Source of the DNA: Krischvirus LF73P4
Sequence record: OZ035795.1
Direction: 5' to 3' (one strand)
DNA length: 64,000 nucleotides
The notes under the pieces: generated by a model
The model's input: the letters and a program-made list of their open reading frames with translations, nothing else
What the model was told of the DNA's origin: nothing
Database searches by the model: none
Made by a program: the position numbers and the translations under genes
Shown here: positions 1-54,890 of the stretch, one piece after another
How positions within the stretch are numbered: position 1 is the first letter of the stretch
Layout of the letters: each line of letters starts with the position of its first letter

Positions 1-1
1 A

Positions 2-142
2 CAAGCTATCATCGATGATAATCGTGATGCGTATATCTACGCTATCGGAAAGTTACGTGATATCTACAAACAGCCACACACGCCAGAACTGCTTTCTGCT
101 ATGTGGATTAGTACACGGCAAACGGTATTAAGTATGCTGTAA
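2..142 (+). CDS. 3' end of unidentified upstream CDS (5' end outside window)
   Basis: Frame open from window edge to TAA at 140-142 (46 codons); hairpin terminator follows. Confidence 0.3.
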   Translation, partial: QAIIDDNRDAYIYAIGKLRDIYKQPHTPELLSAMWISTRQTVLSML

Positions 143-163: not shown

Positions 164-189
164 GAAAGGGGTTTCCCTTTTTATTTTTC
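164..189 (+). terminator. rho-independent terminator
   Basis: AAAGGG (165-170) / CCCTTT (175-180) hairpin followed by T-run 181-188. Confidence 0.5.
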
Positions 190-232
190 TGTGATATAGT
201 GAGAGCATCGAAAACGAAGAGAGGAAGAGACT

Positions 233-1258
233 ATGAAAATTTTGCTTTTAGGTGATCTGCATACTGGTATCGGTGGCGATGATCCGTGGGTGCATGAGTA
301 TATTCTTGATACCATCAAGAAAGCGGTTGAATACTCCAAAGAGCATAATATTAAGACATGGATTCAAACAGGGGATTGGTTTGATTGCCGAAAAGCAATT
401 ACCCATGAAACCATGAAATTTAACCGTACTAAGGTCATCCCGTTACTGGAAGAGGCTGATATTACTTGTTATATCACGGTCGGGAATCATGATATGTTTA
501 AACGAAACAAGATCCAGCCTAACGCACCGCGCGAAGTGTTAAGCCAGTATGATTGCATTAAGGTTATCGATAAACCGGAAACAGTTACCTTTGATGGTGT
601 ATCATTTGATCTGTTCCCGTGGTTTTGTGATGACAATAAATCAGAGGTTTTAGAGTTTATTCAAAACTCATTCAGCGAATATTGTGTAGGCCATTGGGAA
701 TTGTCCGGTTACTATTTCTATAAAGGGCTAAAATCCGAAGGTTATAGCTCGGACTTCCTCAAGAAATACCGTGAAGTGTTTTCGGGTCACTTTCATACTA
801 TCAGTGATGGCGGTAACGTAACGTATATTGGTACACCATACACACTAACGGCGGGTGACGAAAACGATCCGCGTGGTTTTTGGGTATTCGATACCGATAC
901 ACACAAAAAAGAGTTTATTCAGAATGACAAAACTTATCATGTGCGTATCACTTACCCGTCAGATGATAAAATCGATGTAGAACGCTTTAAAGGGCTTAGT
1001 GTGCGTCTTATCGCAACGGTCGCTGATAATGGATTAACTAAGTTAGAAAGCGCGTTAGAGGCCGTTGTACACAAGCTAAAAGTGGTCCATAAACTGGAGA
1101 GTAGCGCATCACAGGAAACAGGTGTTATTGAAGTTAAAAGCACTATTCAGATGGTCTATGAATATCTGGAAGAACAAAACCTAGAACCGGAAGAACTTGC
1201 GGCGGTCAAGCGTATTTCTGATGAACTTTTAGCCGAAGTAAATAACGCAAAAAGTTAG
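233..1258 (+). CDS. 47: recombination endonuclease subunit gp47 (Mre11/SbcD-like metallophosphoesterase)
   Basis: 341 aa; phosphoesterase motifs GDLH, GNHD, GHFH; lies upstream of gp46 as in T4. Confidence 0.9.
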   Translation: MKILLLGDLHTGIGGDDPWVHEYILDTIKKAVEYSKEHNIKTWIQTGDWFDCRKAITHETMKFNRTKVIPLLEEADITCYITVGNHDMFKRNKIQPNAPREVLSQYDCIKVIDKPETVTFDGVSFDLFPWFCDDNKSEVLEFIQNSFSEYCVGHWELSGYYFYKGLKSEGYSSDFLKKYREVFSGHFHTISDGGNVTYIGTPYTLTAGDENDPRGFWVFDTDTHKKEFIQNDKTYHVRITYPSDDKIDVERFKGLSVRLIATVADNGLTKLESALEAVVHKLKVVHKLESSASQETGVIEVKSTIQMVYEYLEEQNLEPEELAAVKRISDELLAEVNNAKS

Positions 1259-5385: not shown

Positions 5386-6072
5386 ATGAAACTGACTAAA
5401 GAAACCATTGCTACCCTGAAAAACTTTTCCGCTATTAACCCAGGTATCATCCTGAAAAAAGGAAACGTCCTAATCACCAAAAACATGACAAACGTTGTAT
5501 ATGGTGAAGCGACTCTGAATCAAGAACTGGAACACGAAATCGGGATCTATGATCTTAACTCTTTCCTGGGCATTCTGAATCTGGTGGGCGATGAAGCAGA
5601 TATTACGGTTGATAACCGCACCGGAAACATTCGTGTGTCTAATGATCGTCTGAAAATTAATTATCCTGGTGCTAGTGCTGCTGCTATCGTATCACCGAAA
5701 GGCCGAGTTACTCCACCTGCAAGCGATGTAGATTACGAACTGAGCAACGACGATCTGAAACAGCTTATGAAAATGAGCAATCAGCTTAAAGTGGATCGCC
5801 TTGAATTTCTACCGATTGATGGTCGTCTGATGATCAAAGGCTGGGAAGAGATTGACAAAAATAATCCTAATGAGATGTTTTGTCTTGATATGGGCGAATA
5901 TACCGGAACCGCAGACTTCCATTTCTTTATTCGTAAAGATAACATGAAACTGGTTGCTACTGACTTCGGCGATTACAAACTGAGCTTCACTCGCCGTAAG
6001 GCTGTATGGCTGGCAAGTGAAACCGTATCTTATATGATCGCGTGTGACCTTGACTCCAGCTACACCGACTAA
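5386..6072 (+). CDS. 45: sliding clamp gp45
   Basis: 228 aa, same length and clear similarity to T4 gp45 as recalled; followed by clamp loader genes. Confidence 0.9.
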   Translation: MKLTKETIATLKNFSAINPGIILKKGNVLITKNMTNVVYGEATLNQELEHEIGIYDLNSFLGILNLVGDEADITVDNRTGNIRVSNDRLKINYPGASAAAIVSPKGRVTPPASDVDYELSNDDLKQLMKMSNQLKVDRLEFLPIDGRLMIKGWEEIDKNNPNEMFCLDMGEYTGTADFHFFIRKDNMKLVATDFGDYKLSFTRRKAVWLASETVSYMIACDLDSSYTD

Positions 6073-8136: not shown

Positions 8137-10815
8137 ATGTATTTTCTGTCATGTGAGCGAGTGGGTGATAAGATCTACGAGCGTTATATTGATGATGCTG
8201 GACAAGAACAAGAGCGTTACGTTGAATATACGCCAACTTTATTTCATCATGCCGCGCCCGGTATGGTTACGAATTATAAAGATATCTATGGCAAGCCTTG
8301 CATTGCTAAAAAATTCCCATCTATGAACGAGGCCAACAAATGGCGTAAAAAGATGGGAGAAATGGGGCAGGAGGCACTAGGGATGGATGATTTTATCATC
8401 TCCTATCTGTCCGATACATATAAAGGCGAGATTCGATATGACCGAAATAAAATCCGTGTAGCCTGGGTTGATATTGAGGTCACTGCACCGGAATTTCCTA
8501 AACCAGAAGAAGCGAAATATCCTATCGATGCTATTACGCATTATGATTCCGTACATGATCGTTTCTTTGTATTTGATTTGAAAGGAAAAAACGGTGAAAT
8601 CTGGGAAGCAAGCAAGTCTATTCTTCGACCTGATATTGTAGAGCGCGTTGTTTATAACGTCTATGACACAGAAGATGAATTGCTGTTAGAATACATCCGA
8701 TTCTTTGAGGAAAACCGACCCGTTGGTTTCACTGGCTGGAACACAGAAACATTCGATATTCCATATATCATTAAACGTATCAGTAATAAGTTCGGAAGTA
8801 GAACCGCTAACCGTCTAAGCCCATGCGGTAAGATTAAATCCCGAATCTCGCAGGATGATTTTGGCAACGAGCGTGAAGCATTTACGATCATGGGGATCGA
8901 AAGCCTTGATTATATTGACCTGTACAAGAAATTTAGCTTTACGACTCAACCAACATATGCATTAGATTATGTTGCTGAATATGAGACCGGAATCGGTAAG
9001 GTTGATTATGATGGTCCGTTAAAGAAATTGCGTGATGACAACCATCAACTTTACATCGATTATAACATCGGCGACGTTGATCGTGTGCTGGCGATTGATA
9101 AAAAGCGTGGATTTATCGATCTTGTGTATAGTCTATGTTTCTATGCAAAGATTAAATTTAACCATGTTTATAACCCGATGAAAGTATGGGATGCTATTAT
9201 CTTCGGATCTCTGAAAGCAGAGGGTAAAGTAGTACCGGAAAATAAGATACAGCCTAAGCAGACTTATCCTGGCGCATTCGTAAAAGAACCTGTACCGAAT
9301 GCTTACCGTTGGATGATGAGCTTTGACTTAACAAGTCTGTACCCATCTATTATTCGACAGGTTAATATTTCTCCTGAAACAATCGCTGGATCTTTTGATG
9401 CTGCACCGATGCACGAGTATATCAATAAAACTGCACCACGTCCGAGTGATGAGTATTCTTGCTCGCCTAACGGATGGATGTATAGAAAAGATATTCACGG
9501 TATCGTACCGATTGAGATTAAAAAGGTATTCGATCAGCGTAAGCAGTACAAAAACATGATGTTGGCATGTGATCGCAATGCTGAACTCTGTAAAGCGATT
9601 CTACACGATGAAAATCATGTTTATGGGGGAACCATTAGCTATAGCGTTGAAGTGCGTCACGACTTCGATGAAGCGTTTAAATCGATGCTTTCTGAATTGA
9701 GCAAAGATGCCTTAGAGAAATTGCTGGAAGAATGTAAAGACGAGTCGATCTTGTGCAATACAAACCAGCTTTCTCGAAAAGTTTTGATCAACTCCCTTTA
9801 TGGTGCGTTGGGGAATCCTAAATTCCGTTTTTATGATCTCCGTAACGCTAGTGCGATCACACTGTTCGGTCAGCTTGCAATTCAGTGGATTGAGCGTAAG
9901 ATTAACGAATACTTAAACGAGCTTTGCGGAACGACTGATTTTGCATATGTTCGTTATTGTGATACTGACTCCGTTTATGTGCTGGTTAACAATGTTATTG
10001 ATAAGGTTGGCGGGGAAGACCGTTTCGACGATACCGAAAAACTTGTTGACTTCCTTGATAATTTCGGTAAACATCGAATGGAACCTATTATCGACAAGGG
10101 ATATCGCGAGTTATGCGAGTACATGAACAACTATGAGCACTTGATGTTTATGGACCGTGAGGCAATTGCTGGTCCTCCGTTGAAATCTGCGGGTATCGGT
10201 GGATTCTGGACTGGTAAAAAGCGTTATGCTCTTAATGTTTGGGATATGGAAGGAACGCGCTTTGCTGAACCTAAGCTAAAAATCATGGGCTTGGAAACGC
10301 AACGTAGCTCCACCCCTAAAGCATGTCAGAAATCACTGAAAGAATGTATTCGCCGTATGTTGCAGGAAGGTGAAGAGTCATTGCAGGAATACTACGGTAT
10401 TTTTGAGCAAGAATTTAGAAAACTTGACTATCTTGATGTTGCTGCGGTATCATCTGCAAACAACCTACAGAAATACAGCGATTCAAACGGGTATCCGATT
10501 AAGGGTTGTCCGTATGCGGTTAAGAGTGTATTGTGTTATAATCGTAATGCTCGAAAATTCGGACTAGACCCGATTCGTGAGGGTGAGAAGGTTATGATTG
10601 TACCGCTTAAAGACCGAAATCCGTTTGGAGAAATCTGTTTTGGTTGGTTGTCTGGTACTCGTATTCCACCAGAAATTGAATCAGAGGTGTTGAAGTGGTT
10701 GGACTGGCCTTTGTTGTTTAATAAGACTTTCGTCAAACCACTGGAGAACATTACCACGGCTGCAAAGCTGCAATATGAAAAAGTTGCTTCACTGACTGAC
10801 CTGTTTGACATTTAA
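8137..10815 (+). CDS. 43: DNA polymerase gp43 (family B, with 3'-5' exonuclease)
   Basis: 892 aa from ATG 8137 (AAGGAG upstream); motifs DIEV, SLYPS, YCDTDS; collinear with T4 gp43. Confidence 0.95.
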   Translation: MYFLSCERVGDKIYERYIDDAGQEQERYVEYTPTLFHHAAPGMVTNYKDIYGKPCIAKKFPSMNEANKWRKKMGEMGQEALGMDDFIISYLSDTYKGEIRYDRNKIRVAWVDIEVTAPEFPKPEEAKYPIDAITHYDSVHDRFFVFDLKGKNGEIWEASKSILRPDIVERVVYNVYDTEDELLLEYIRFFEENRPVGFTGWNTETFDIPYIIKRISNKFGSRTANRLSPCGKIKSRISQDDFGNEREAFTIMGIESLDYIDLYKKFSFTTQPTYALDYVAEYETGIGKVDYDGPLKKLRDDNHQLYIDYNIGDVDRVLAIDKKRGFIDLVYSLCFYAKIKFNHVYNPMKVWDAIIFGSLKAEGKVVPENKIQPKQTYPGAFVKEPVPNAYRWMMSFDLTSLYPSIIRQVNISPETIAGSFDAAPMHEYINKTAPRPSDEYSCSPNGWMYRKDIHGIVPIEIKKVFDQRKQYKNMMLACDRNAELCKAILHDENHVYGGTISYSVEVRHDFDEAFKSMLSELSKDALEKLLEECKDESILCNTNQLSRKVLINSLYGALGNPKFRFYDLRNASAITLFGQLAIQWIERKINEYLNELCGTTDFAYVRYCDTDSVYVLVNNVIDKVGGEDRFDDTEKLVDFLDNFGKHRMEPIIDKGYRELCEYMNNYEHLMFMDREAIAGPPLKSAGIGGFWTGKKRYALNVWDMEGTRFAEPKLKIMGLETQRSSTPKACQKSLKECIRRMLQEGEESLQEYYGIFEQEFRKLDYLDVAAVSSANNLQKYSDSNGYPIKGCPYAVKSVLCYNRNARKFGLDPIREGEKVMIVPLKDRNPFGEICFGWLSGTRIPPEIESEVLKWLDWPLLFNKTFVKPLENITTAAKLQYEKVASLTDLFDI

Positions 10816-37034: not shown

Positions 37035-37097
37035 AGCCGTTTCTCCTTAGTAGTTCCCTTCCGTGGGAGTTTTCCTTAATTCTTTTTATAATTGCGT

Positions 37098-37880
37098 CTA
37101 AACAGCCGGTCCGTAAATAGCTCCGCGATTTTGCCACGTTGGAGAAGACCCTATAACAGCATATCCAGAATCGCCGCCATTATATTCAGATCCTTGACCA
37201 CGAATATTACATCTACCTCCTGCGGCGCCTACCTCACCACCGCTTCCACCATTATAGATACCGTTCACGGACCCCGAACCGGGCGCATAAAGAGTACCAG
37301 CAGTTGCGCCTGATTGCATATCAATAGATCCGCCCGGCGCACCAAACGGACGCCCACCGCCACCGCCAAAGGTTAATCTCATTTGTGAAAAAGGAGAATA
37401 ATACCCGCCACCGCCACCGCCACCGCCACCTGCAATAGCTCCACCATTATTAATTCTTAGTCTCCCACCAATATCATTTTGAATACAATGCCCCCCGGCT
37501 GATCCAGGACCATTGCTACCGCCATTCCCGCCACGACCATACATCGTTACGCCATGTATATTCAACTGAACATATTCATTCGGTGTATCTCCGTACATAA
37601 AGAATAAAGGAACATCTTTAGAATATGATACTAAATCTCCAGTGATATTAAACACTATAGGTGTACTACCTGCTTCAAAGCATCTATCACGGAACCACTG
37701 ACCGTTGAAGTTATGGTCTGCACCAAGTGTATGAATAATTTCTCGCGAGCGACCTGCAAATTGACTCATCCAGCAAGGAACACCCAATCTTAATTGACCA
37801 GCCGCTTGACTCATCCATCGTTGTCCTGTTTCATTTGCGGCTGAACTTCCAATCCAACCAGGAACACCAACTACTGCCAT
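37098..37880 (-). CDS. 38: long tail fibre tip adhesin gp38 (T2-type, glycine-rich motifs)
   Basis: 260 aa; conserved N-terminal domain then poly-Gly runs separated by variable segments. Confidence 0.9.
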
Positions 37881-37893
37881 AATTTATACTCCA

Positions 37894-37912
37894 AAGGGGG
37901 CAACGCCCCCTT
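37894..37912 (-). other. tight stem-loop AAGGGGGC-aac-GCCCCCTT between gene 37 and gene 38
   Basis: Perfect 8-bp inverted repeat with 3-nt loop. Confidence 0.4.
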
Positions 37913-37916
37913 GTTG

Positions 37917-40697
37917 TTAGAATTTAAAATATTTACTAATTTTGCGAGCAATTTTAGTAAAGAAAGGAGTTTTCAATTCTTTAATTTCTTCACTCATTTC
38001 CTGAATAGCCTTAATTAAAAGAGCATTCACTGCCGAGTTAGAAATTGTCAGAACATCAGATCCATCAACTTCAACTTTAGATACAGCTTCCGGCAATTCT
38101 TTTTCAAGATCCTGAGCAATAATACCAGCTTCACGTTTAATCACACTACGATCTTTAATAGACTTAACTTTATCGTAAGTATAAACTTTCAGACGGCATA
38201 CTTTTTCAAGTGCTCCGTTTTCTAACTCTTCTTTATTAATCTTAAGACGGGAGTCAGAACGAATATACACATCGCTAAAGCTACCATTTCCTGGTGTATA
38301 AAAGAACCCATCATGATGGAATTCAAACACAGCTTGTGGGTGTCCAGCATCAGGAGAAGCCTCCGTGGATCCGACACGAATGATTGCTTGCCCCCACTGT
38401 GATGGAATACGACGCATACCAAAGTCAACAGCGGTGCTATATCCTTGATTGGTTATAACGCTTCTTGCTTTAAGAATAGGATAATAACTATCTTGACCAA
38501 CATAACCATGATCAACGAATAATGGAGCTTCTACTCGCCATTGGTTGCCCCAATCACCTGGTTGTCTGGCAACCCAACTTGCACCATTGATATACATACG
38601 ATCGCGGTTAACGTTAACCATTAAGGTATTTTGCGGGTTTAAAGATATCTCGCCAGAATTTGTAATATAAATTGCAGAATTACTAGCATAACTAAAAAAC
38701 CCTAATCCGTTATCAGCGCCTCCTTTCCCTATATACCAATTATTATTACCATCACAACTACCCAACAAATAAACCGAATCTCCAGATGACGGAGCATTCA
38801 AAACTATTGCGTCCGAACCACGATTAACAGTTATTTTATCGGAAGATTCTATTTGACCAAAGAATTTAGTTTTAATTGCACCAGTCGCTAAAGTACGTTC
38901 AGTGGAAAAATGAGCGCCTTTGCTATCTTCTAACTGAATAATGTTATCACGAGCGTTATTGCTATCACCCCAATGGTTAAATTTAAAATAATCTCGTGAT
39001 CCTAAACGTCCGGCGTCAAAAGTCATCAAGCCTTTCATGTTAATATCACCACCAAAAAATGCGGTGAGAGAATCACGTTTTAATTTTAAAACGTTAGCAC
39101 CACTAGTACCACCCAAAGTAACATCACCAGTTCTTAATTCATAACGGAAAGGTCTATTTGTATTAAAGTTTCCATCTTGATCATTTTCGTCGGTGGAAAG
39201 AATATAAAGACTCTCTCCATCATTACGTAAAAATGCACCAAATTTTCCGCCATACATACGGAATGCATTCAACGAGCGGAATTTAACTTCTGTTTTAAAT
39301 GTGGTAGTGTTATTAAGGTTAACAGTAGAGTTAAAGTTAACTGCGCCATTAAAATCTTGTTTAGCAGTCCAAGTATGTGATCCGTCTTCAAGAACAACAC
39401 GGCGAACTGTACAAGTTCTATTTCCCGGATTACCAGCAACACGAACGACAAAATAACGGTAGTTTGTCTGGGATACAGTACCACGCCAAACCTGAACAGT
39501 ACGCCCTGTGCCAGTGTGTTCGCTAGGACCGACAGAAAACATAACCAAGTTTCCGTCAATCGCACCCCAATCCATATTTGCTGGCATGTTCTTTATTTTG
39601 TTCAAAGGAACACTAAACATACTACCAGGGACAAAATCAAAGGTTTGCCAGTCTAGCTCCGCTAATTGAGATTTAACACCACCCATACCCAGAGTGATCG
39701 GCATAGAATAGGACGTATATACTTCGTACCAATTTCCCCAGATGTTATTTGTCATCGCACGTTCAAACACGCGAGATCGCGTAGTTGCACCCGTTCCTGC
39801 GGTAGTGAAACGTTGGAAAATAGCGGCACCGGAAGCACGCTGTTTAACCTCAAGCAATCCGGTCATCTCAACCGGAACACCTTCTGCAACTGGACGGTTA
39901 ATAACGGCATCAGTCCCTAAAATGTTATACAAGCCAGGAGAACGAAAATTATTAAGATCCCCGTCATAGAATGTGTTTGGAGTAACCATACCTACTTGTT
40001 GCCACGGTCCCCAATTCGGAGCTTCTGGATCCCATGCACCAGCAAGACAACGAACATATACAACACCCATTCGGGTAGTATAACGTTGCGTGCGAGAATA
40101 GTTACCACCTTCATAAATTTCTAAAAGACCTTGCGCGAGACCACCTTCTTCTGGGTAATTTCGAGAAAATGATGCAATGGAACTTAAACTATTTCGCCAT
40201 AACCCAAAATGAGAAGCATCACCTAAAGTATTCAAGTCTAGTGTAGTTGATAGTGGACGTGTGCCAGTTTGAATATTGCGCCACGGACCCCATGGACCAT
40301 CTACGCCATTCCATTTAGCAGACAAAGAACGGATATAAACGTTACCAGACCGAACAGTATAACGCTGAGTGCCAGCAAATTGACCAGCCACAAATACTTC
40401 TAATACACCTACAGCATTCTCTTCTGGGAATTTATTTGCTGGCTGCGCATTTGTTGAAGTTGATTTAGACCAAACGCCAGTAAATTTACCAGTAGGTCCA
40501 TAATTATCTAAATTTGCATCAGATGGCAACTCACCGCGAAAGTGTCCCAAAGTAATTACATTATTGCTGTCATCTTTTGTATATAGTTCTCGATCCGCTA
40601 GGTTAATAGCAAGTTCACCCGGAGTTAGAATATTCGCATCCGGCTTGCGACCTGCCGTACTTGTTCTTTTAAATTGGATTCTCTGTAAATCTGCCAT
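37917..40697 (-). CDS. 37: long tail fibre distal subunit gp37, with C-terminal intramolecular-chaperone-like segment
   Basis: 926 aa; N-terminus QRIQFKRTSTAG...GELAINL like T4 gp37; SDSRLK motif about 113 aa from C-terminus. Confidence 0.9.
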   Translation of the reverse strand: MADLQRIQFKRTSTAGRKPDANILTPGELAINLADRELYTKDDSNNVITLGHFRGELPSDANLDNYGPTGKFTGVWSKSTSTNAQPANKFPEENAVGVLEVFVAGQFAGTQRYTVRSGNVYIRSLSAKWNGVDGPWGPWRNIQTGTRPLSTTLDLNTLGDASHFGLWRNSLSSIASFSRNYPEEGGLAQGLLEIYEGGNYSRTQRYTTRMGVVYVRCLAGAWDPEAPNWGPWQQVGMVTPNTFYDGDLNNFRSPGLYNILGTDAVINRPVAEGVPVEMTGLLEVKQRASGAAIFQRFTTAGTGATTRSRVFERAMTNNIWGNWYEVYTSYSMPITLGMGGVKSQLAELDWQTFDFVPGSMFSVPLNKIKNMPANMDWGAIDGNLVMFSVGPSEHTGTGRTVQVWRGTVSQTNYRYFVVRVAGNPGNRTCTVRRVVLEDGSHTWTAKQDFNGAVNFNSTVNLNNTTTFKTEVKFRSLNAFRMYGGKFGAFLRNDGESLYILSTDENDQDGNFNTNRPFRYELRTGDVTLGGTSGANVLKLKRDSLTAFFGGDINMKGLMTFDAGRLGSRDYFKFNHWGDSNNARDNIIQLEDSKGAHFSTERTLATGAIKTKFFGQIESSDKITVNRGSDAIVLNAPSSGDSVYLLGSCDGNNNWYIGKGGADNGLGFFSYASNSAIYITNSGEISLNPQNTLMVNVNRDRMYINGASWVARQPGDWGNQWRVEAPLFVDHGYVGQDSYYPILKARSVITNQGYSTAVDFGMRRIPSQWGQAIIRVGSTEASPDAGHPQAVFEFHHDGFFYTPGNGSFSDVYIRSDSRLKINKEELENGALEKVCRLKVYTYDKVKSIKDRSVIKREAGIIAQDLEKELPEAVSKVEVDGSDVLTISNSAVNALLIKAIQEMSEEIKELKTPFFTKIARKISKYFKF

Positions 40698-40741
40698 TTT
40701 ATAAAATCCTTAACGGTTGTTAGAATAATATTATTTAGAAA

Positions 40742-40760
40742 AGCGGGGATTATCCCCGCT
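40742..40760 (-). terminator. stem-loop AGCGGGGA-tta-TCCCCGCT, partial terminator/attenuator between gp36-like gene and gene 37
   Basis: 8-bp perfect inverted repeat; short U-run follows on - strand. Confidence 0.4.
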
Positions 40761-40764
40761 AGAA

Positions 40765-42255
40765 TTAGAAAGTACCAAAATCAATTACCGCATTAAGCGG
40801 AACAGCGCCAACATCATCAGGAGTTGGTTTGTGTCCTTCGTGGTATAATTCAAATGTATCGGTGTCCTGAGTATTGTTGCGTGATTTAACGAAAATAATT
40901 TTAGAATCATGTGTGATGCCTAGTTTCTCGTGCGCTTTAATATCACTAACACGATGAATCATTGCTGTGCCATCTAAGCTATTAAGTCCAGCGTAGCAAT
41001 TATCACCATTATAGTTAGCTTTTGCGGTACGAACGCCGTTTGCAGCGGGAACTGTCAAAGCACCTCTCATGGTATCGCCAGTCACATTAACATAGCGAGC
41101 ATCAGCCAATTTACGGTGATCTACATAGTTCCATGCGGTCCATGATTCATTAGAACAAGAACGCCAGCACATCGGATGATCAATAGATTCAGGATAGTAT
41201 ACCTGAACAATTCGACGAGTACCGACCGCATCTTCTGGGCGATATACCATCAAAACGCCGTTATAATAGCTATCAGACGGTTTATTAGTACCTGATCCAG
41301 CATTTTCCACACGATAGATACCGCGATTAATAAGAGTGTTCCAATCAACGTTTCCAATGATTGTTGGATTTGCTACCATTGATTTTTTCTCAAAGTAGCT
41401 CAAACGAACCAATTCATTAGGACCAGCAGGATCGTTTGTCGCCAACATTCTAGGCGCTTGCAAGTTACCTTCCATAATATCACCAGCACGTTTAACCTGT
41501 GCATCATTGGTGACATTACCTAGTCCAACATCGGCTTTAGTCGGTTTATTGTTGGTGTGGTAGAATCTACCTGCCTTGCCATTAACAGAAATTGTCGGCT
41601 CGTTTTTGCTACTGAATGCCAAAGTATCAAGACTATTTCCAAAATAAATGGCATTAGAATCGAAAGCAATGAAACCACGATCCCGCGCAAGTATTTTCGA
41701 ATTAACATCAAGTTTAAATGTAGCCGTGTTTAAATTATACGTTCCCGTGAGAGTATCACCGCGACGAGACACCAAATCCAAATCATTGTTTGTCGGCTTA
41801 TTAACAGGACTATAGACGCGTTGACCAGTGTCTTTAATGGTTGTCCCTTCGATGGTCCCTTTAGTTTTAAAATCACCTGTGGTAGTGTCAATATAAGCCA
41901 TGATAACATCATCACGAGCATTAACAAAACCAATAGATTTCCACGAATGCAAACCCCAACTTACACCATCAAAGTTAGCCGCATCGCTCTTTCCTTTAAA
42001 GATCCCGTTCTTTTTGGTTTCTCCACCGGATGCGCTACCTACGCTTAAACCTTCCTCAAAATGGACCAGTTTCTGAAATGTACCACCCTCAGATGCACTA
42101 ACAGCATCAAAATCGGCAGCCGAAGGTTTATCAAAAGCGGTATAGATTTTATGACCTTTATAGAAAAGCTGATCACCCGCTGGCTGGATCGTCAAGTTTC
42201 CTTGCGTCCAAATGGGAGATCCGCCTACAGTAGATCCATGTTTCAAATCTGCCAT
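40765..42255 (-). CDS. 36: long tail fibre hinge/connector protein, gp36-like (enlarged)
   Basis: 496 aa; N-terminus MADLKHGSTVGGSPIWTQGN...PAGD resembles T4 gp36; directly upstream of gene 37. Confidence 0.6.
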   Translation of the reverse strand: MADLKHGSTVGGSPIWTQGNLTIQPAGDQLFYKGHKIYTAFDKPSAADFDAVSASEGGTFQKLVHFEEGLSVGSASGGETKKNGIFKGKSDAANFDGVSWGLHSWKSIGFVNARDDVIMAYIDTTTGDFKTKGTIEGTTIKDTGQRVYSPVNKPTNNDLDLVSRRGDTLTGTYNLNTATFKLDVNSKILARDRGFIAFDSNAIYFGNSLDTLAFSSKNEPTISVNGKAGRFYHTNNKPTKADVGLGNVTNDAQVKRAGDIMEGNLQAPRMLATNDPAGPNELVRLSYFEKKSMVANPTIIGNVDWNTLINRGIYRVENAGSGTNKPSDSYYNGVLMVYRPEDAVGTRRIVQVYYPESIDHPMCWRSCSNESWTAWNYVDHRKLADARYVNVTGDTMRGALTVPAANGVRTAKANYNGDNCYAGLNSLDGTAMIHRVSDIKAHEKLGITHDSKIIFVKSRNNTQDTDTFELYHEGHKPTPDDVGAVPLNAVIDFGTF

Positions 42256-42288
42256 AAAGTAACCTCAAAAATTAGTTATAGTTCCGAG

Positions 42289-42296
42289 TATTTATA
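42289..42296 (-). promoter_or_regulatory. T4-type late promoter box TATAAATA
   Basis: Exact TATAAATA on - strand, 33 nt upstream of gp36-like ATG. Confidence 0.55.
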
Positions 42297-42465
42297 GAAT
42301 GTTAACAAAATATCGCTTCGCGACGTGCCGTAGGCACTGACTACTTTTTAACCGAAACAAATTTTCTATTATTCTAAAGATCTTTCTTCGTTTTGGTTAT
42401 GTTTTAACCAATAACTATATTTTTATACAGTAATAAATAAAACGGGTACTATACGAGGACTTCTT

Positions 42466-53318: not shown

Positions 53319-53331
53319 GTGTATGATTTTA

Positions 53332-53366
53332 AAAGCCAATTCGAGAGAGTTGGCTTTTTCCATTTT
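53332..53366 (+). terminator. rho-independent terminator after gene 8
   Basis: AAAGCCAA / TTGGCTTT hairpin followed by TTTTT. Confidence 0.55.
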
Positions 53367-53371
53367 TGGTG

Positions 53372-53399
53372 TTGACAATATTATTTGGTAAGGTATAAT
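53372..53399 (+). promoter_or_regulatory. near-consensus sigma70-type promoter TTGACA-16-TATAAT
   Basis: -35 at 53372-53377, -10 at 53394-53399, 30 nt upstream of ATG 53429. Confidence 0.55.
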
Positions 53400-53428: not shown

Positions 53429-53686
53429 ATGGCACGTCGTAAATTTACAGATAATTGTGAAGCAATTCAGGTATCCCCTTGCGGTTGGTATGTGATCGCG
53501 AACGGTGAAAAGATCGGAGAGATCATCGATCATACTCATTCATCACTAGCCGATTACACCGATGAACTATGGGAGGGTATCAACTTCATGAATGACACTA
53601 AACGATTCAAGACTATCGACGAAGCTATCTATTTTGTGTATAATCCAACTTTCGGTATGTGGGGAACTAGAAAATGGCACGCGTAA
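53429..53686 (+). CDS. hypothetical protein (cassette gene 1)
   Basis: 85 aa; GGAGGA 6 nt upstream. Confidence 0.5.
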   Translation: MARRKFTDNCEAIQVSPCGWYVIANGEKIGEIIDHTHSSLADYTDELWEGINFMNDTKRFKTIDEAIYFVYNPTFGMWGTRKWHA

Positions 53687-54003
53687 ATATTAAACTGCAT
53701 TATACAATGGGTAAACCAAAACATCCAATGCATAAAGTGTTTTGGGGCTTGCATCTTCAAGAAAAATGGCATGATAACTATTGGTTTTGTGACCATGATA
53801 AGAAGTGGCATTCTCAAGATGAAGTTAATGCGATGATGGAACATGGTATAAAATTTAATTACTCTAATTATGACCATAGCATTACTTGTATTCGAAAATT
53901 GAAACGGTTTATTCGAAAGAATCCGCAATTTAAAAACTTTGTGTTCTTTATGTCTCATGTTTATTTGGGGCATAGCGTTACCGTAACAGCAAAGGTTAAA
54001 TAA
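53674..54003 (+). CDS. hypothetical His/Trp-rich protein (cassette gene 2)
   Basis: 109 aa; start overlaps upstream ORF. Confidence 0.5.
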   Translation: MARVNIKLHYTMGKPKHPMHKVFWGLHLQEKWHDNYWFCDHDKKWHSQDEVNAMMEHGIKFNYSNYDHSITCIRKLKRFIRKNPQFKNFVFFMSHVYLGHSVTVTAKVK

Positions 54004-54842
54004 TGGCACGACTTTCTAAACAAGAGCAAAAATTACACGATCGGGCGATGGAGCTAATCAATTCAGATCGCCCATTGACCTATGAAGAAAAAGAATTTTG
54101 CTATAACAACTATCATGGCGATGGGCTAGGTGGTTCCGGTGCATTCTTTACCCCAGAAGGGCTTGCCTGGGATTTTACCATTGATGCACACTGCACCGGA
54201 AAAGTATTGGACCTTTGTGCTGGGATCGGTCGTTTATCTTTTTGTATGTTGCATCGCTGTAAGCCAGAAAAGATCGTATGCGTCGAACTCAATCCAGAAT
54301 TTGCGAGGATTGGCAAGCGACTATTACCGGAGGCAGAATGGATCACCAGCGATGTATTCGAATTTGAGTCAAACGAGAAATTCGATGTTGTAATTAGCAA
54401 TCCACCTTTCGGGAAAATCAATACAACCGACACAAAGGATGTATTTGAGTACACTGGCGGCGAATTTGAATTTAAGGTTATGACATTAGGCCAGAAGTTT
54501 GCCGATGTAGGTTATTTTATTGTTCCTACTGGTTCCGCTGGTTTTGCCTATTCCGGTAGACCTTATTATGATGGATCAGTGAAGTCTAATAAATATCTAA
54601 AATGGAGCAAACAAACTGGTTTGGTGACTTATGCCGGATGTGGGATCGATACATCAATCTATCGCGATGAATGGCACAGTACCAACGTTTTAACAGAAGT
54701 GGTTGAGGTTCGGTATTACGAGAAAGAAGCCGTAGAAGCGCCTAAATCGCGTCCTAACGAACAAATAGAAGAAAGTAAGGAGATTACCTTACCGGAACAA
54801 GAAACAGCGTCTGGGACGCTCTCAGACTTGTTTGACATTTAA
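54003..54842 (+). CDS. gamma-class N6-adenine-type DNA methyltransferase (cassette gene 3)
   Basis: 279 aa; motif X GAFFTPEGLA, motif I VLDLCAGIGRL, motif IV VISNPPFG. Confidence 0.75.
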   Translation: MARLSKQEQKLHDRAMELINSDRPLTYEEKEFCYNNYHGDGLGGSGAFFTPEGLAWDFTIDAHCTGKVLDLCAGIGRLSFCMLHRCKPEKIVCVELNPEFARIGKRLLPEAEWITSDVFEFESNEKFDVVISNPPFGKINTTDTKDVFEYTGGEFEFKVMTLGQKFADVGYFIVPTGSAGFAYSGRPYYDGSVKSNKYLKWSKQTGLVTYAGCGIDTSIYRDEWHSTNVLTEVVEVRYYEKEAVEAPKSRPNEQIEESKEITLPEQETASGTLSDLFDI

Positions 54843-54846
54843 TTAT

Positions 54847-54872
54847 AAGCCGTCCTCCTGGGCGGCTTTTTT
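54847..54872 (+). terminator. rho-independent terminator after methyltransferase
   Basis: AAGCCG...CGGCTT hairpin followed by TTTTTT. Confidence 0.6.
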
Positions 54873-54882
54873 GTATGTATTT

Positions 54883-54890
54883 TATAAATA
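54883..54890 (+). promoter_or_regulatory. T4-type late promoter box TATAAATA for gene 9
   Basis: Exact TATAAATA, 27 nt upstream of ATG 54918. Confidence 0.6.

Follow-up and report, generated by a model that had tools for sequence, protein, structure and literature searches.

The Krischvirus LF73P4 carries, between the baseplate genes 8 and 9, a gene whose product has the motifs of an amino-methyltransferase (MTase). This locus raises the question of what the enzyme methylates, and of how so small a protein would find its substrate. We analysed a window of 64,000 nucleotides from sequence record OZ035795.1; positions refer to this window and the features discussed are collected in Table 1. The open reading frame (ORF) was confirmed, it begins with ATG and encodes 279 amino acids. 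The source of the window is an RB49-like Krischvirus, and the MTase gene is the ortholog of RB49p143, which has never been characterised. Names are inconsistent between databases, which at present list the genes as ‘release factor glutamine methyltransferase’, ‘rRNA methyltransferase’, ‘radical SAM protein’ or ‘hypothetical’. Literature searches found no methylome or biochemical data on RB49p143 or its homologs; m6dA is not reported in the Durham HPLC/MS paper, and the KP15 and KP27 papers list only Dam and Dcm.

The MTase is found at a protein identity of at least 95% in 58 Krischvirus genomes, homologs occur in 289 phage records and 187 plasmids, and the family comprises 187 clusters (50% identity) at E<1e-30; the gene is therefore real and conserved. 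Homologs are mostly 236–242 amino acids long. The plasmid matches (tblastn, E<=1e-5) are mostly from Pseudomonas, Streptomyces and Agrobacterium, with no enterobacterium among the organisms listed for them. In phage RB16 the family member sits in the replication cluster, with genes 41 and 61 on either side, and in GAP32 it sits between nrdD and nrdG. The extensions of long family members are mostly undefined. The Dickeya phage JA29-like group (P0126) carries a fragment of a beta-class DNA methylase domain (PF01555), which is weakly supportive as a clue to the substrate.

The gene lies in a cassette that is set between two intrinsic terminators. The first of these ends the transcript of the late gene 8, and the RefSeq record of phage GEC-3S has an independent terminator annotation at this site. 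It is followed by a sigma-70 promoter, which we read as the early promoter of the cassette. With this 12/12 promoter and the enclosing terminators, the MTase is predicted to be expressed early. Downstream of the cassette, TATAAATA is presumably a late promoter of the kind established in T4. Besides the baseplate genes 8 and 9, the MTase has only two small ORFs as neighbours, neither with a Pfam match, so there is no endonuclease partner nearby, in agreement with the original prediction. The possibility that the family has a conserved partner encoded upstream, for instance a specificity subunit or a TRMT112-like activator, was considered and rejected. The ORFs that abut family members in RB16, GAP32, phiM12, Labrenzia, Pseudomonas, Streptomyces and Citrobacter are unlike one another and also unlike the 85- and 109-residue products encoded in the window; the 109-residue product is thus not a conserved partner.

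Table 1. Positions of the features of the MTase cassette, the MTase protein and the replication proteins gp45 and gp43 in the window.
Feature	Position (nt)	Residues	Strand	Details
gp45 sliding clamp, proposed docking partner	5386..6072		+	Pfam gp45-slide_C and DNA_PPF, both above cut-offs
gp43 family-B DNA polymerase	8137..10815		+	Pfam DNA_pol_B and exonuclease domains
Intrinsic terminator ending gene 8 (late) transcript	53331..53358		+	12-bp stem, then T-run
Sigma-70 promoter TTGACA-16 nt-TATAAT	53372..53399		+	12/12 consensus; annotated in GEC-3S with -35 and -10
85-aa ORF, first cassette gene	53429..53686		+	No Pfam match; hypothetical in GEC-3S
109-aa ORF	53674..54003		+	Stop overlaps MTase start (TAATG); no Pfam match
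Methyltransferase CDS	54003..54842		+	RB49p143 ortholog, PHROG 3820; 279 aa
N-terminal helical region	54003..54137	1-45	+	Helices 6-19, 27-36, 39-42; H12 and L25 kept family-wide
Motif X GAFFTPEGLA	54138..54167	46-55	+	F49, T50, P51 conserved or invariant
Motif I VLDLCAGIGRL (AdoMet binding)	54204..54236	68-78	+	G74, G76 invariant
Motif II acidic residue	54285-54287	E95	+	
Motif IV VISNPPFG (catalytic NPPF)	54390..54413	130-137	+	N133, P135 invariant
Family-specific insertion, about 50 aa	54540..54692	~180-230	+	Between strand 5 and last strand
Disordered acidic linker	54717..54812	239-270	+	pLDDT 61-71
Putative gp45 clamp-binding motif GTLSDLFDI	54813..54839		+	Extreme C-terminus; matches gp43 tail
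Strong intrinsic terminator, cassette end	54847..54868		+	9-bp stem, 6 GC pairs, then TTTTTGT; annotated in GEC-3S
Presumed T4-type late promoter TATAAATA	54883..54890		+	Upstream of gene 9 (start 54918)

An AlphaFold2 model of the protein (mean pLDDT 90.1, pTM 0.83) predicts that residues 1–238 are one compact catalytic domain. The motifs X, I and IV are present where the original prediction had placed them and in the N- to C-terminal order that it gave (GAFFTP at residues 46–51, DLCAGIG at 70–76 and NPPF at 133–136). Across hundreds of divergent family members G74, G76, N133, P135, E95 and D216 are invariant. The C-terminal ~130 residues had been expected to supply target recognition, a role that the model does not bear out; residues 140–238, the insertion of about 50 residues included, are predicted to finish the Rossmann fold, and residues 239–279 form a disordered tail. 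The model consists of this single domain (residues 1–238) and the tail, with no separate target-recognition domain. The insertion contains the sequence GIDTSIYRDEW, which includes the invariant D216 and the conserved W224; this is a candidate base-binding or mini-recognition loop with a motif VIII-like aromatic residue.

The X-I-IV order had been taken as the gamma-class arrangement. The order itself is seen, but neither the order nor the FFTP of motif X identifies the substrate as DNA, because RNA and protein amino-MTases such as METTL5/PH1948, RsmC and HemK have the same order. In the family profile alignment FFTP lies opposite the ‘YRTP’ of PH1948. The best sequence matches among solved structures are PH1948, RsmC, Ta1320 and METTL5, and MTS, PrmC and RsmC rank first among the curated profiles. 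A search against N6_Mtase and related profiles had been suggested as a check, and its outcome was mixed. N6_Mtase (PF02384) scores 16.7 bits, below the gathering threshold of 20.4. Eco57I (PF07669) scores 28.2 against a cut-off of 25.3 and covers residues 117–189 only, and the Pfam MTS profile, a generic small-MTase domain, scores 38.6 against 23 over residues 60–143. Matches at E<0.01 were obtained among 66 family members for N6_Mtase in 26, Eco57I in 17 and MTS in 60. Best profile hits to RNA or protein MTases had been named among the outcomes that would refute the prediction, and to the letter this outcome is seen, but PrmC and RsmC fall far under their family cut-offs. PrmC/HemK (TIGR03534) reaches 37.5 bits against a cut-off of 199.1 and covers residues 64–137 only, RsmC (NF007023) reaches 29.2 bits against an equivalog cut-off of 295, and TrmN6 is also far under its curated cut-off; these three identities were rejected. 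A DNA amino-methyltransferase stays the best reading. An orphan or protective methylase had been called the simplest interpretation; from this we retain the DNA-MTase reading and the solitary nature of the gene, the family being confined to phages, plasmids and islands and solitary in every context examined.

The X-I-IV order and a motif IV of the form (D/N)PP(Y/F/W) are shared with gamma-class MTases (M.TaqI, type I HsdM and the Eco57I/MmeI-type enzymes). Unlike these, the MTase has neither a recognition domain nor an S subunit, its catalytic unit comprises only 238 residues, and it has its own insertion and a putative clamp-binding tail. METTL5, PH1948 and Ta1320 (18S rRNA m6A MTase family) and RsmC (MTS domain) can be aligned over about 170 residues only and lack the N-terminal helices, the 180–230 insertion and the tail. 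METTL5 requires TRMT112, whereas the MTase family has no conserved partner, and in contrast to the MTase these enzymes are not encoded on mobile elements. The DarB protein of phage P1 is an antirestriction protein. DarB-like MTase-helicase fusions (PHROGs 11801, 1685 and 10089) are phage-encoded, as is the MTase; their MTase domain was aligned to query positions ~4 to ~144 with E-values of 8e-7 to 4e-3, and the structural neighbours of the MTase in BFVD are also MTase-helicase fusion proteins. The similarity is weak, and the fusions differ from the MTase in being giant (>2000 aa), packaged in the virion, equipped with helicase domains and free of a clamp motif.

The original prediction did not include a putative C-terminal clamp-binding peptide, which is the most informative feature of the protein. 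Residues 239–279 are disordered, acidic and specific to Krischvirus; over its whole length the tail contains 11 acidic against 4 basic residues (pI 4.2), and a short helix is predicted at residues 273–277. The MTase ends in ...SGTLSDLFDI and gp43 of the same phage ends in ...VASLTDLFDI, the last five residues being identical. A six-frame search of the window for DLFD[IFLMV] gives just two occurrences, in the MTase and in gp43, and in the whole genome of RB49 (164 kb) just the MTase and gp43 ORFs end in this way. The probability that a second protein would end in DLFDI by chance is about 3e-4. A chance match was rejected on the basis of this value and of the uniqueness of the pair in the window and in RB49. 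A recent DNA copy of the 3' end of the polymerase gene was rejected because the match covers only 19 of 27 nucleotides, different leucine codons are used and the flanking sequences are unrelated. The linker differs among Krischvirus isolates and the terminal nonapeptide is constant.

The SLTDLFDI at the C-terminus of gp43 (nt 10789-10812) serves as the reference for a clamp-binding tail in this phage. In T4, gp43 ends in ...KASLDFLFG and gp55 in ...SPSLDFLYEAND, with SLDFL[FY] common to both. The gp43 tail ASLTDLFDI of the phage studied here is homologous to the T4 clamp-binding SLDFLF, and the [ST]L[ST]DLFDI of the MTase and its own gp43 resembles the T4 SLDFL[FY]. In T4 clients the clamp-binding motif is joined to the body of the protein by a linker and binds a hydrophobic patch of gp45 (PMC7892883). 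The T4-family clamp clients gp43 (polymerase), gp55 (late sigma factor) and gp33 (co-activator) share with the MTase a layout of body, linker and C-terminal peptide. The putative client in the window is a methyltransferase, and this is no known class of gp45 partner in the literature searched. The literature searches likewise found no clamp-binding motif on a prokaryotic MTase.

C-terminal motifs also occur elsewhere in the family. A strict motif, Q[LFIMV]x[LMFI][FL] in the last 12 residues, was sought in 86 tailed representatives at 50% identity. It is present in 22 of them, against 0.33 expected from shuffled tails, and a relaxed pattern is present in 40, against 1.0 expected. At 80 phage loci from IMG/VR the strict motif is found in 23 and the strict or relaxed motif in 57; for contigs shorter than 120 kb, 53 of 67 match. 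The other ORFs in the same IMG/VR loci served as a control, in which the strict motif is found in 5 of 2289 (0.2%) and the relaxed pattern in 34 of 2289. A C-terminal QLxLF is an established motif for binding to the beta clamp (PMC4549789). On unrelated tails of 10–233 residues QLxLF ends are over 60-fold more frequent than expected, and many family members do not have any tail. The QLxLF C-terminus is found in plasmid relatives, such as Pseudomonas megaplasmid members (for example ...FAQLSLFDAA), and in phages that use the host replisome; the terminus of the window protein is of the phage type and not of the Q type. In Slopekvirus gp43 ends in ...SLNDLFGDW and the MTase in ...KSDLFTFTIE, and in Pseudotevenvirus gp43 ends in ...SLNTLFGDDW and the MTase in ...AQNLFTFTIE. 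In the 20-kb loci of these two genera no substantial ORF besides gp43 and the MTase has a tail of this kind. The termini suggest that the type of tail motif tracks the clamp in use, with T4-like phages that have their own gp45 carrying non-Q, polymerase-like termini.

We consider it moderately likely that the MTase is a DNA N6-adenine methyltransferase which is expressed early, is tethered to the clamp and works during replication, probably in anti-restriction. It is predicted to be a compact single-domain AdoMet-dependent enzyme that has NPPF in its active site and lacks a recognition domain, and it is encoded in a self-contained early cassette inserted between the late baseplate genes 8 and 9. 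An acidic linker of about 30 residues leads to GTLSDLFDI, a copy of the tail by which its own polymerase would bind the clamp, and this peptide would dock in a hydrophobic pocket on gp45 of the phage. Carried by clamps that have been loaded at nicks and replication forks, the MTase would methylate new phage DNA, with adenine N6 as the most likely target, and tracking along DNA from the clamp would take the place of a recognition domain. The support for methylation of adenine N6 in DNA is indirect and comes from the putative clamp-binding tail, the carriage on mobile elements and the fold. The likely benefit is that phage DNA with unmodified cytosines would be shielded from restriction. This design recurs within the family, where relatives on plasmids and in host-replisome phages carry the beta-clamp motif QLxLF at the C-terminus instead.

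A wider proposal, which we regard as evenly balanced, is that the family represents widespread DNA adenine MTases of phages, plasmids and islands which lack a recognition domain and for which the clamp is the DNA-tracking module. The C-terminal motif would be swapped to match the clamp, QLxLF for the host beta clamp or a polymerase-like motif for the phage's own gp45, and fast, probably low-specificity co-replicative methylation would outrun restriction. Such enzymes would be the prokaryotic counterpart of DNMT1 and PCNA. DNMT1 is the eukaryotic maintenance MTase that is brought to replication forks through a PIP-box to PCNA. The likeness is that a short linear motif to the clamp couples methylation to replication, and it is one of analogy only and not of homology. 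DNMT1 is a large, multi-domain C5-cytosine enzyme of eukaryotes and its motif is not C-terminal, unlike that of the MTase.

Another parallel is offered by M.EcoGIX and M.BceJIII, which are replication-coupled, promiscuous anti-restriction MTases of plasmids (PMC7736820). Like the proposed MTase they are orphan enzymes borne on mobile elements, are expressed early on entry and coupled to replication, have low specificity (SAY) and counter restriction. For activity they required Pol I as a partner from the replisome, and the authors suggested that the sliding clamp might act as an intermediary (PMC7736820). They are beta-class enzymes with DPPY (PMC7736820) and a non-homologous motif order, whereas the MTase has NPPF and the gamma-type order, and neither is reported to have a clamp-binding motif of its own. 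They are therefore functional analogues only. The replisome partner of M.EcoGIX and M.BceJIII has been inferred and not identified, and clamp tethering of the MTase, if true, would address the same question. It would also explain how a 238-residue MTase can act efficiently on DNA without a recognition domain, provide a route by which mobile elements couple self-protective methylation to replication, and bring methyltransferases into the set of clients known for T4 gp45 and the bacterial beta clamp. The type of C-terminal motif would become a sequence rule that predicts the replisome used by a mobile element, and the contradictory names of several hundred phage and plasmid genes would be settled. 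It would also bear on the candidates for phage therapy among Krischvirus, Slopekvirus and Pseudotevenvirus, in which sensitivity to restriction affects the host range.

The MTase could instead be an ordinary site-specific orphan N6-adenine MTase, protective in the manner of Dam, which reads a short motif through the ~50-residue insertion and whose tail has no part in targeting. This agrees with the NPPF, the gamma-type order and the DNA-MTase-like fold, with a solitary gene on mobile elements, with the absence of the tail from many family members and with the BREX sensitivity of TB34, which fits a narrow specificity. It leaves unexplained both the five-residue identity with the polymerase end and the excess of QLxLF on tails that are otherwise unrelated, and we consider it unlikely. 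An RNA or protein substrate, the glutamine of a release factor or m2G/m6A in rRNA, is quite unlikely; the enzyme would then act on components of host translation or, in view of the tail, on a protein of the replisome kept at the clamp. Profiles of such enzymes score best, but the values for PrmC (37.5 against 199 bits) and RsmC (29 against 295) are far too low for family membership, there is no conserved TRMT112-like or other partner, and the putative clamp-binding tail would put the enzyme on DNA. The restriction of the family to mobile DNA elements across phyla also argues against this substrate, as do the alignment of DNA MTases over a larger part of the protein, N-terminal helices included, and the nearest viral structures, which are MTase-helicase fusions.

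The tail might also make the protein a competitor or regulator at the clamp, occupying the pockets of gp45 or the host beta clamp and so modulating replication or the switch to late transcription, or else the replication of the host, with methylation secondary or vestigial. A tail that is the same as that of the polymerase would contend for one pocket, T4 late transcription is controlled by the occupancy of gp45 (PMC7892883), and MuC of phage Mu also employs the beta clamp (PMC12867686). However, the residues for AdoMet binding and catalysis are invariant family-wide, which points to selection on catalysis, and a peptide of nine residues would be sufficient to compete, with no need of a 238-residue enzyme. 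We consider this role very unlikely.

The original prediction that the protein is not of the alpha-class T4 Dam type agrees with its NPPF, the lack of DPPY and the lack of a MethyltransfD12 match. The further remark that no DPPY protein is seen at the T4 dam-like position was borne out by a six-frame scan of the 64 kb for DPP[YFW], which gave no such methylase and, as its single hit, a DPPF in a 310-residue gp13-like ORF; the MTase is the only ORF in the same six frames with NPP[YFWH]. RB49-type genomes do have a D12-class dam with DPPY, which lies outside the window (RB49p063, PF02086 match at 5.5e-30). RB49 has this dam and a third annotated methylase elsewhere, and the MTase is therefore not a stand-in for Dam.

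The methyltransferase gene belongs to an RB49-like Krischvirus, a 'pseudo-T-even' phage of the Straboviridae, and the 1.7 kb around it shares 99.9% identity with phage vB-Eco-KMB43 and 95.6% with RB49. Its product (MTase) carries the three motifs named in the original prediction, in the order given there, at amino acids 46–55, 68–78 and 130–137. Six-frame scans show that it is the sole NPP[YFW] ORF of the 64-kb window and that the window contains no DPP[YFW] methylase; the observation on which the prediction was built is therefore confirmed. The solitary nature of the enzyme also holds, no endonuclease adjoins the family genes in any context examined. RB49-type phages have three annotated methyltransferases, the other two (p063 and p189) lying outside the window. 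The annotation of p189 is unsupported, because this protein matches no Pfam family and lacks a [DNS]PP[YFW] motif.

Features of the methyltransferase locus, the replisome proteins and other RB49 proteins
Feature	Sequence	Coordinates	Strand	Remarks
gp45 sliding clamp	window	5386-6072
gp43 DNA polymerase	window	8137-10815
Terminator after gene 8	window	53331-53358
Sigma-70 promoter	window	53372-53399		TTGACA, 16 nt, TATAAT; consensus match 12/12
Two small ORFs 5' of MTase	window	53429-54003		85 aa and 109 aa; no family match
MTase ORF	window	54003-54842	+	279 aa; RB49p143 ortholog
Strong terminator after MTase	window	54847-54868
T4-type late promoter	window	54883-54890		TATAAATA; ahead of gene 9, downstream of the MTase terminator
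p063 Dam	NC_005066.1	39922-40734		true D12-class, DPPY
p189 'DNA methyltransferase'	NC_005066.1	115890-116606		238 aa
RB49 gp55	NC_005066.1	27531-28064
RB49 gp33	NC_005066.1	142695-142964

The curated profiles are ambiguous for this protein. Pfam matches it to MTS (1e-9) and to Methyltransf_25. The match to N6_Mtase or related families that had been proposed as a check was found for Eco57I (2.4e-6, above the cut-off and covering only 73 residues), not for N6_Mtase, which scored below the cut-off. The only NCBIfam matches are to PrmC and RsmC, all far sub-threshold. Homologs are named in GenBank as 'DNA methyltransferase', 'release factor glutamine methyltransferase', 'radical SAM protein' or 'hypothetical', and the RefSeq entry for RB49 combines the product 'DNA methyltransferase' with the note 'similar to rRNA guanine-N2-methyltransferase'. 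A full-length match is seen for a single phage family, PHROG 3820 (4e-117).

An exhaustive search resolves a discrete family of 187 clusters (50% identity, E<1e-30), whose conserved unit is query residues 1–~238. Invariant or nearly invariant residues include F49, T50, P51, D70, G74, G76, E95, P109, W113, N133, P134, P135, F136, G137, D216 and W224. AlphaFold2 predicts residues 1–238 as a confident single domain (mean pLDDT 90, pTM 0.83) comprised of three N-terminal helices, a Rossmann core and an insertion of ~50 residues (aa ~180–230) bearing a conserved GIDTS...W loop. The rest is a low-confidence tail. There is thus no recognition domain in the C-terminal ~130 aa, which the prediction expected to supply target recognition.

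The MTase gene sits between the late baseplate genes 8 and 9, yet it forms its own unit. In the GEC-3S RefSeq record an independent annotation shows the same order of elements, with two ORFs and MTase after the promoter and a terminator at either end, and this arrangement points to early expression driven by host RNA polymerase. The 109-aa ORF overlaps the MTase start (TAATG) and is rich in His/Trp. Both small ORFs, co-transcribed with MTase, are kept in Krischvirus and missing from the other contexts of the family.

The last 41 residues of MTase are acidic (11 D/E against 4 K/R) and predicted to be disordered. This tail is confined to Krischvirus, most homologs end near residue 240. The protein ends in ...ASGTLSDLFDI and gp43, the DNA polymerase of the same phage, in ...KVASLTDLFDI. 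The pattern DLFD[IFLMV] occurs twice in the six frames of the window, at these two ends, and in the complete RB49 genome MTase and gp43 are the only ORFs with an end of this type. The chance of a second protein ending in DLFDI is ~3e-4. The linker varies among Krischvirus isolates (LPEQETAS, LPKQESES, LPEDKSPS) while GTLSDLFDI is invariant, and in more distant relatives the end reads GTLTDLFDI or GSLSMFDI. The MTase tail is not a DNA copy of the gp43 end: only 19/27 nt match, leucine is encoded by different codons and the flanking sequences show no relationship.

In T4, gp43 ends in ...KASLDFLFG and the late sigma factor gp55 in ...SPSLDFLYEAND. The role of the gp43 tail reportedly rests on work by Berdis et al. 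(1996) and on a crystal structure of the RB69 clamp with a peptide by Shamoo and Steitz (1999). In the literature both T4 tails are described as sliding-clamp-binding motifs that a linker connects to the rest of the protein and that bind a hydrophobic patch of gp45 (PMC7892883). RB49 gp55 ends in ...ELPSLDQFYEIEN, resembling T4 SLDFLYEAND, and gp33 in ...EPTNTLDI; the Krischvirus clamp clients thus have related but non-identical tails, and the MTase tail is nearest to the polymerase's. Neither p063 Dam nor p189 has a clamp-type tail.

Tail motifs are found across the family. The set contains 145 complete 50%-identity representatives, of which 86 extend at least 10 residues past the core, with tails of 10–233 aa. 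The strict bacterial beta-clamp motif, Q[LFIMV]x[LMFI][FL], is present in the last 12 residues of 22 of these 86. Shuffled tails would give 0.33, and the frequency in the catalytic cores is 0.0005; a relaxed version is present in 40 (1.0 expected). Examples are ...FAQLSLFDAA (a Pseudomonas megaplasmid), ...SQLALF, ...KKQLTLF, ...PQLSLFA, ...AEQLALF and ...GTIGLFDI (Streptomyces pZL1). Several of the misses are a QLxLxL variant. QLxLF at an unstructured C-terminus is the established bacterial beta-clamp-binding motif, with the full consensus QLSLF (PMC4549789). Among 80 IMG/VR phage loci, 23 have the strict motif and 57 the strict or relaxed motif, as against 5/2289 (strict) and 34/2289 (relaxed) other ORFs of the same loci; the Fisher p-values (4e-31 strict, 2e-71 relaxed) are inflated because the loci are related. 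An end of the type Q[LAP][SD]LF[GD]xAA occurs in 53/67 IMG/VR contigs below 120 kb.

T4-like phages with their own clamp lack a Q-type motif, their MTase tail sharing its core with their own polymerase tail. In Slopekvirus gp43 ends in ...SLNDLFGDW and MTase in ...KSDLFTFTIE, in Pseudotevenvirus the ends are ...SLNTLFGDDW and ...AQNLFTFTIE, and at these loci the two are the sole substantial ORFs with such ends. We are highly confident that the tail motifs are genuine and were selected. Members from jumbo phages, Aeromonas phages and a Citrobacter island have no tail, so the core can function without the clamp. In the lineage of Dickeya phage JA29 (BFVD A0A384ZXJ6, 389 aa) and P0126 (389 aa) the family core has, in place of a clamp motif, a C-terminal fusion to a fragment of the beta-class DNA methylase domain PF01555 (profile positions 171–220 of 221). 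A few other phage ORFs near MTase orthologs have strict beta-clamp ends, ...DQLDLFGAAA and ...GQLRLFG (L083:1554, 289 aa; L089:18613 and L090:18100, both 288 aa), and may be further clamp-tethered proteins.

Homologs are present in 289 phage records, including Krischvirus, Pseudotevenvirus RB16/RB43, KP15-like Slopekvirus, Aeromonas T4-likes, jumbo phages such as GAP32, Sinorhizobium phiM12 and Dickeya JA29. A further 187 plasmids carry them, chiefly Pseudomonas megaplasmids and Streptomyces and rhizobial plasmids, and one is in the Citrobacter island, flanked by IS and HNH. The gene is solitary in every context examined, and the ORFs directly upstream of it show no relationship among themselves. 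The gene is flanked by replication genes 41 and 61 in RB16 and by nrdD and nrdG in GAP32, and sits among tRNA-related genes in phiM12. The Slopekvirus member is KP15_gp027 (GAP32 annotation note; 48.8% identity in tblastn). The KP15 and KP27 papers report no methyltransferases besides Dam and Dcm, and leave the resistance of KP27 to many restriction enzymes without explanation (PMC5219037, PMC3620542).

We therefore propose, as a moderately probable reading, that MTase carries out clamp-tethered, co-replicative DNA methylation. Made early in infection, the enzyme would use its C-terminal peptide to dock on the gp45 clamps that are loaded at replication forks and at nicks, and the flexible acidic linker would leave the catalytic domain free to reach the DNA passing through the ring. 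Base flipping and methylation of the exocyclic amine would be the work of the NPPF loop, with W224 and D216 probably contributing; given an NPPF motif and a DNA substrate, adenine N6 is the most likely target. The clamp would replace the absent recognition domain, making methylation co-replicative, and an anti-restriction role would fit a phage with unmodified cytosines as well as plasmids and temperate phages on arrival in a new host. A substrate other than DNA, whether RNA or protein, seems hard to reconcile with the putative clamp-binding tail and with a distribution limited to mobile elements. A precedent for co-replicative methylation against restriction is offered by M.EcoGIX and M.BceJIII. 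These are orphan plasmid methylases, promiscuous (SAY) and coupled to replication. They protect against restriction and depended on a replisome partner, and their authors suggested that the sliding clamp may be an intermediary (PMC7736820). These are beta-class DPPY enzymes whereas MTase has NPPF, and they are therefore analogues, not relatives.

Methylation by MTase would be either motif-limited or incomplete, because DraI, HpaII and NheI all cut RB49 DNA, which is regarded as unmodified (PMC4041780), and because a GATCAG-specific BREX system still restricts Krischvirus TB34, a phage that has the gene, by ~100-fold (PMC11341690). For comparison, M.EcoGIX modifies ~40% of its own sites. A 2026 study describes glucosylated methyl-cytosine-type modifications in Krischvirus SAP, with no identifiable genes for them, and canonical cytosines in TB34, which is 99.96% identical (PMC13390438). 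That difference is separate from MTase.

The ORF itself is known and ordinary, since it was listed as RB49ORF143w with a 'Methyltransferase small domain' match in a 2006 comparison of T4-like genomes (PMC1524935) and is named a DNA methyltransferase in RefSeq. The literature searched gave no account of a clamp-binding tail on a family MTase or of family-wide tail motifs matched to the replisome in use. What we rate as new is the combination of a DNA amino-methyltransferase with a putative clamp-client short linear motif.

The window is rearranged relative to RB49, 1–42300 against 42302–64000, with the junction at 42302–42411. Window 232–37088 and 40592–42411 are the reverse complement of RB49 26365->1 and 164018->150000, and they abut RB49 62775->84460, which is in forward orientation. 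The junction is spanned by 0/58 Krischvirus records, and in RB49 both breakpoints coincide exactly with an inverted repeat of ~110 bp (93.6% identity). Either an inversion of ~77 kb is real and has brought early and late genes onto one strand, or the assembly was mis-joined at the repeat. In the distal tail-fibre region, window 37089–40591 has no megablast match to RB49 and its flanks are 87–98% identical; it lies inside a 926-aa minus-strand ORF (37917–40697) and looks like a swapped host-range cassette.
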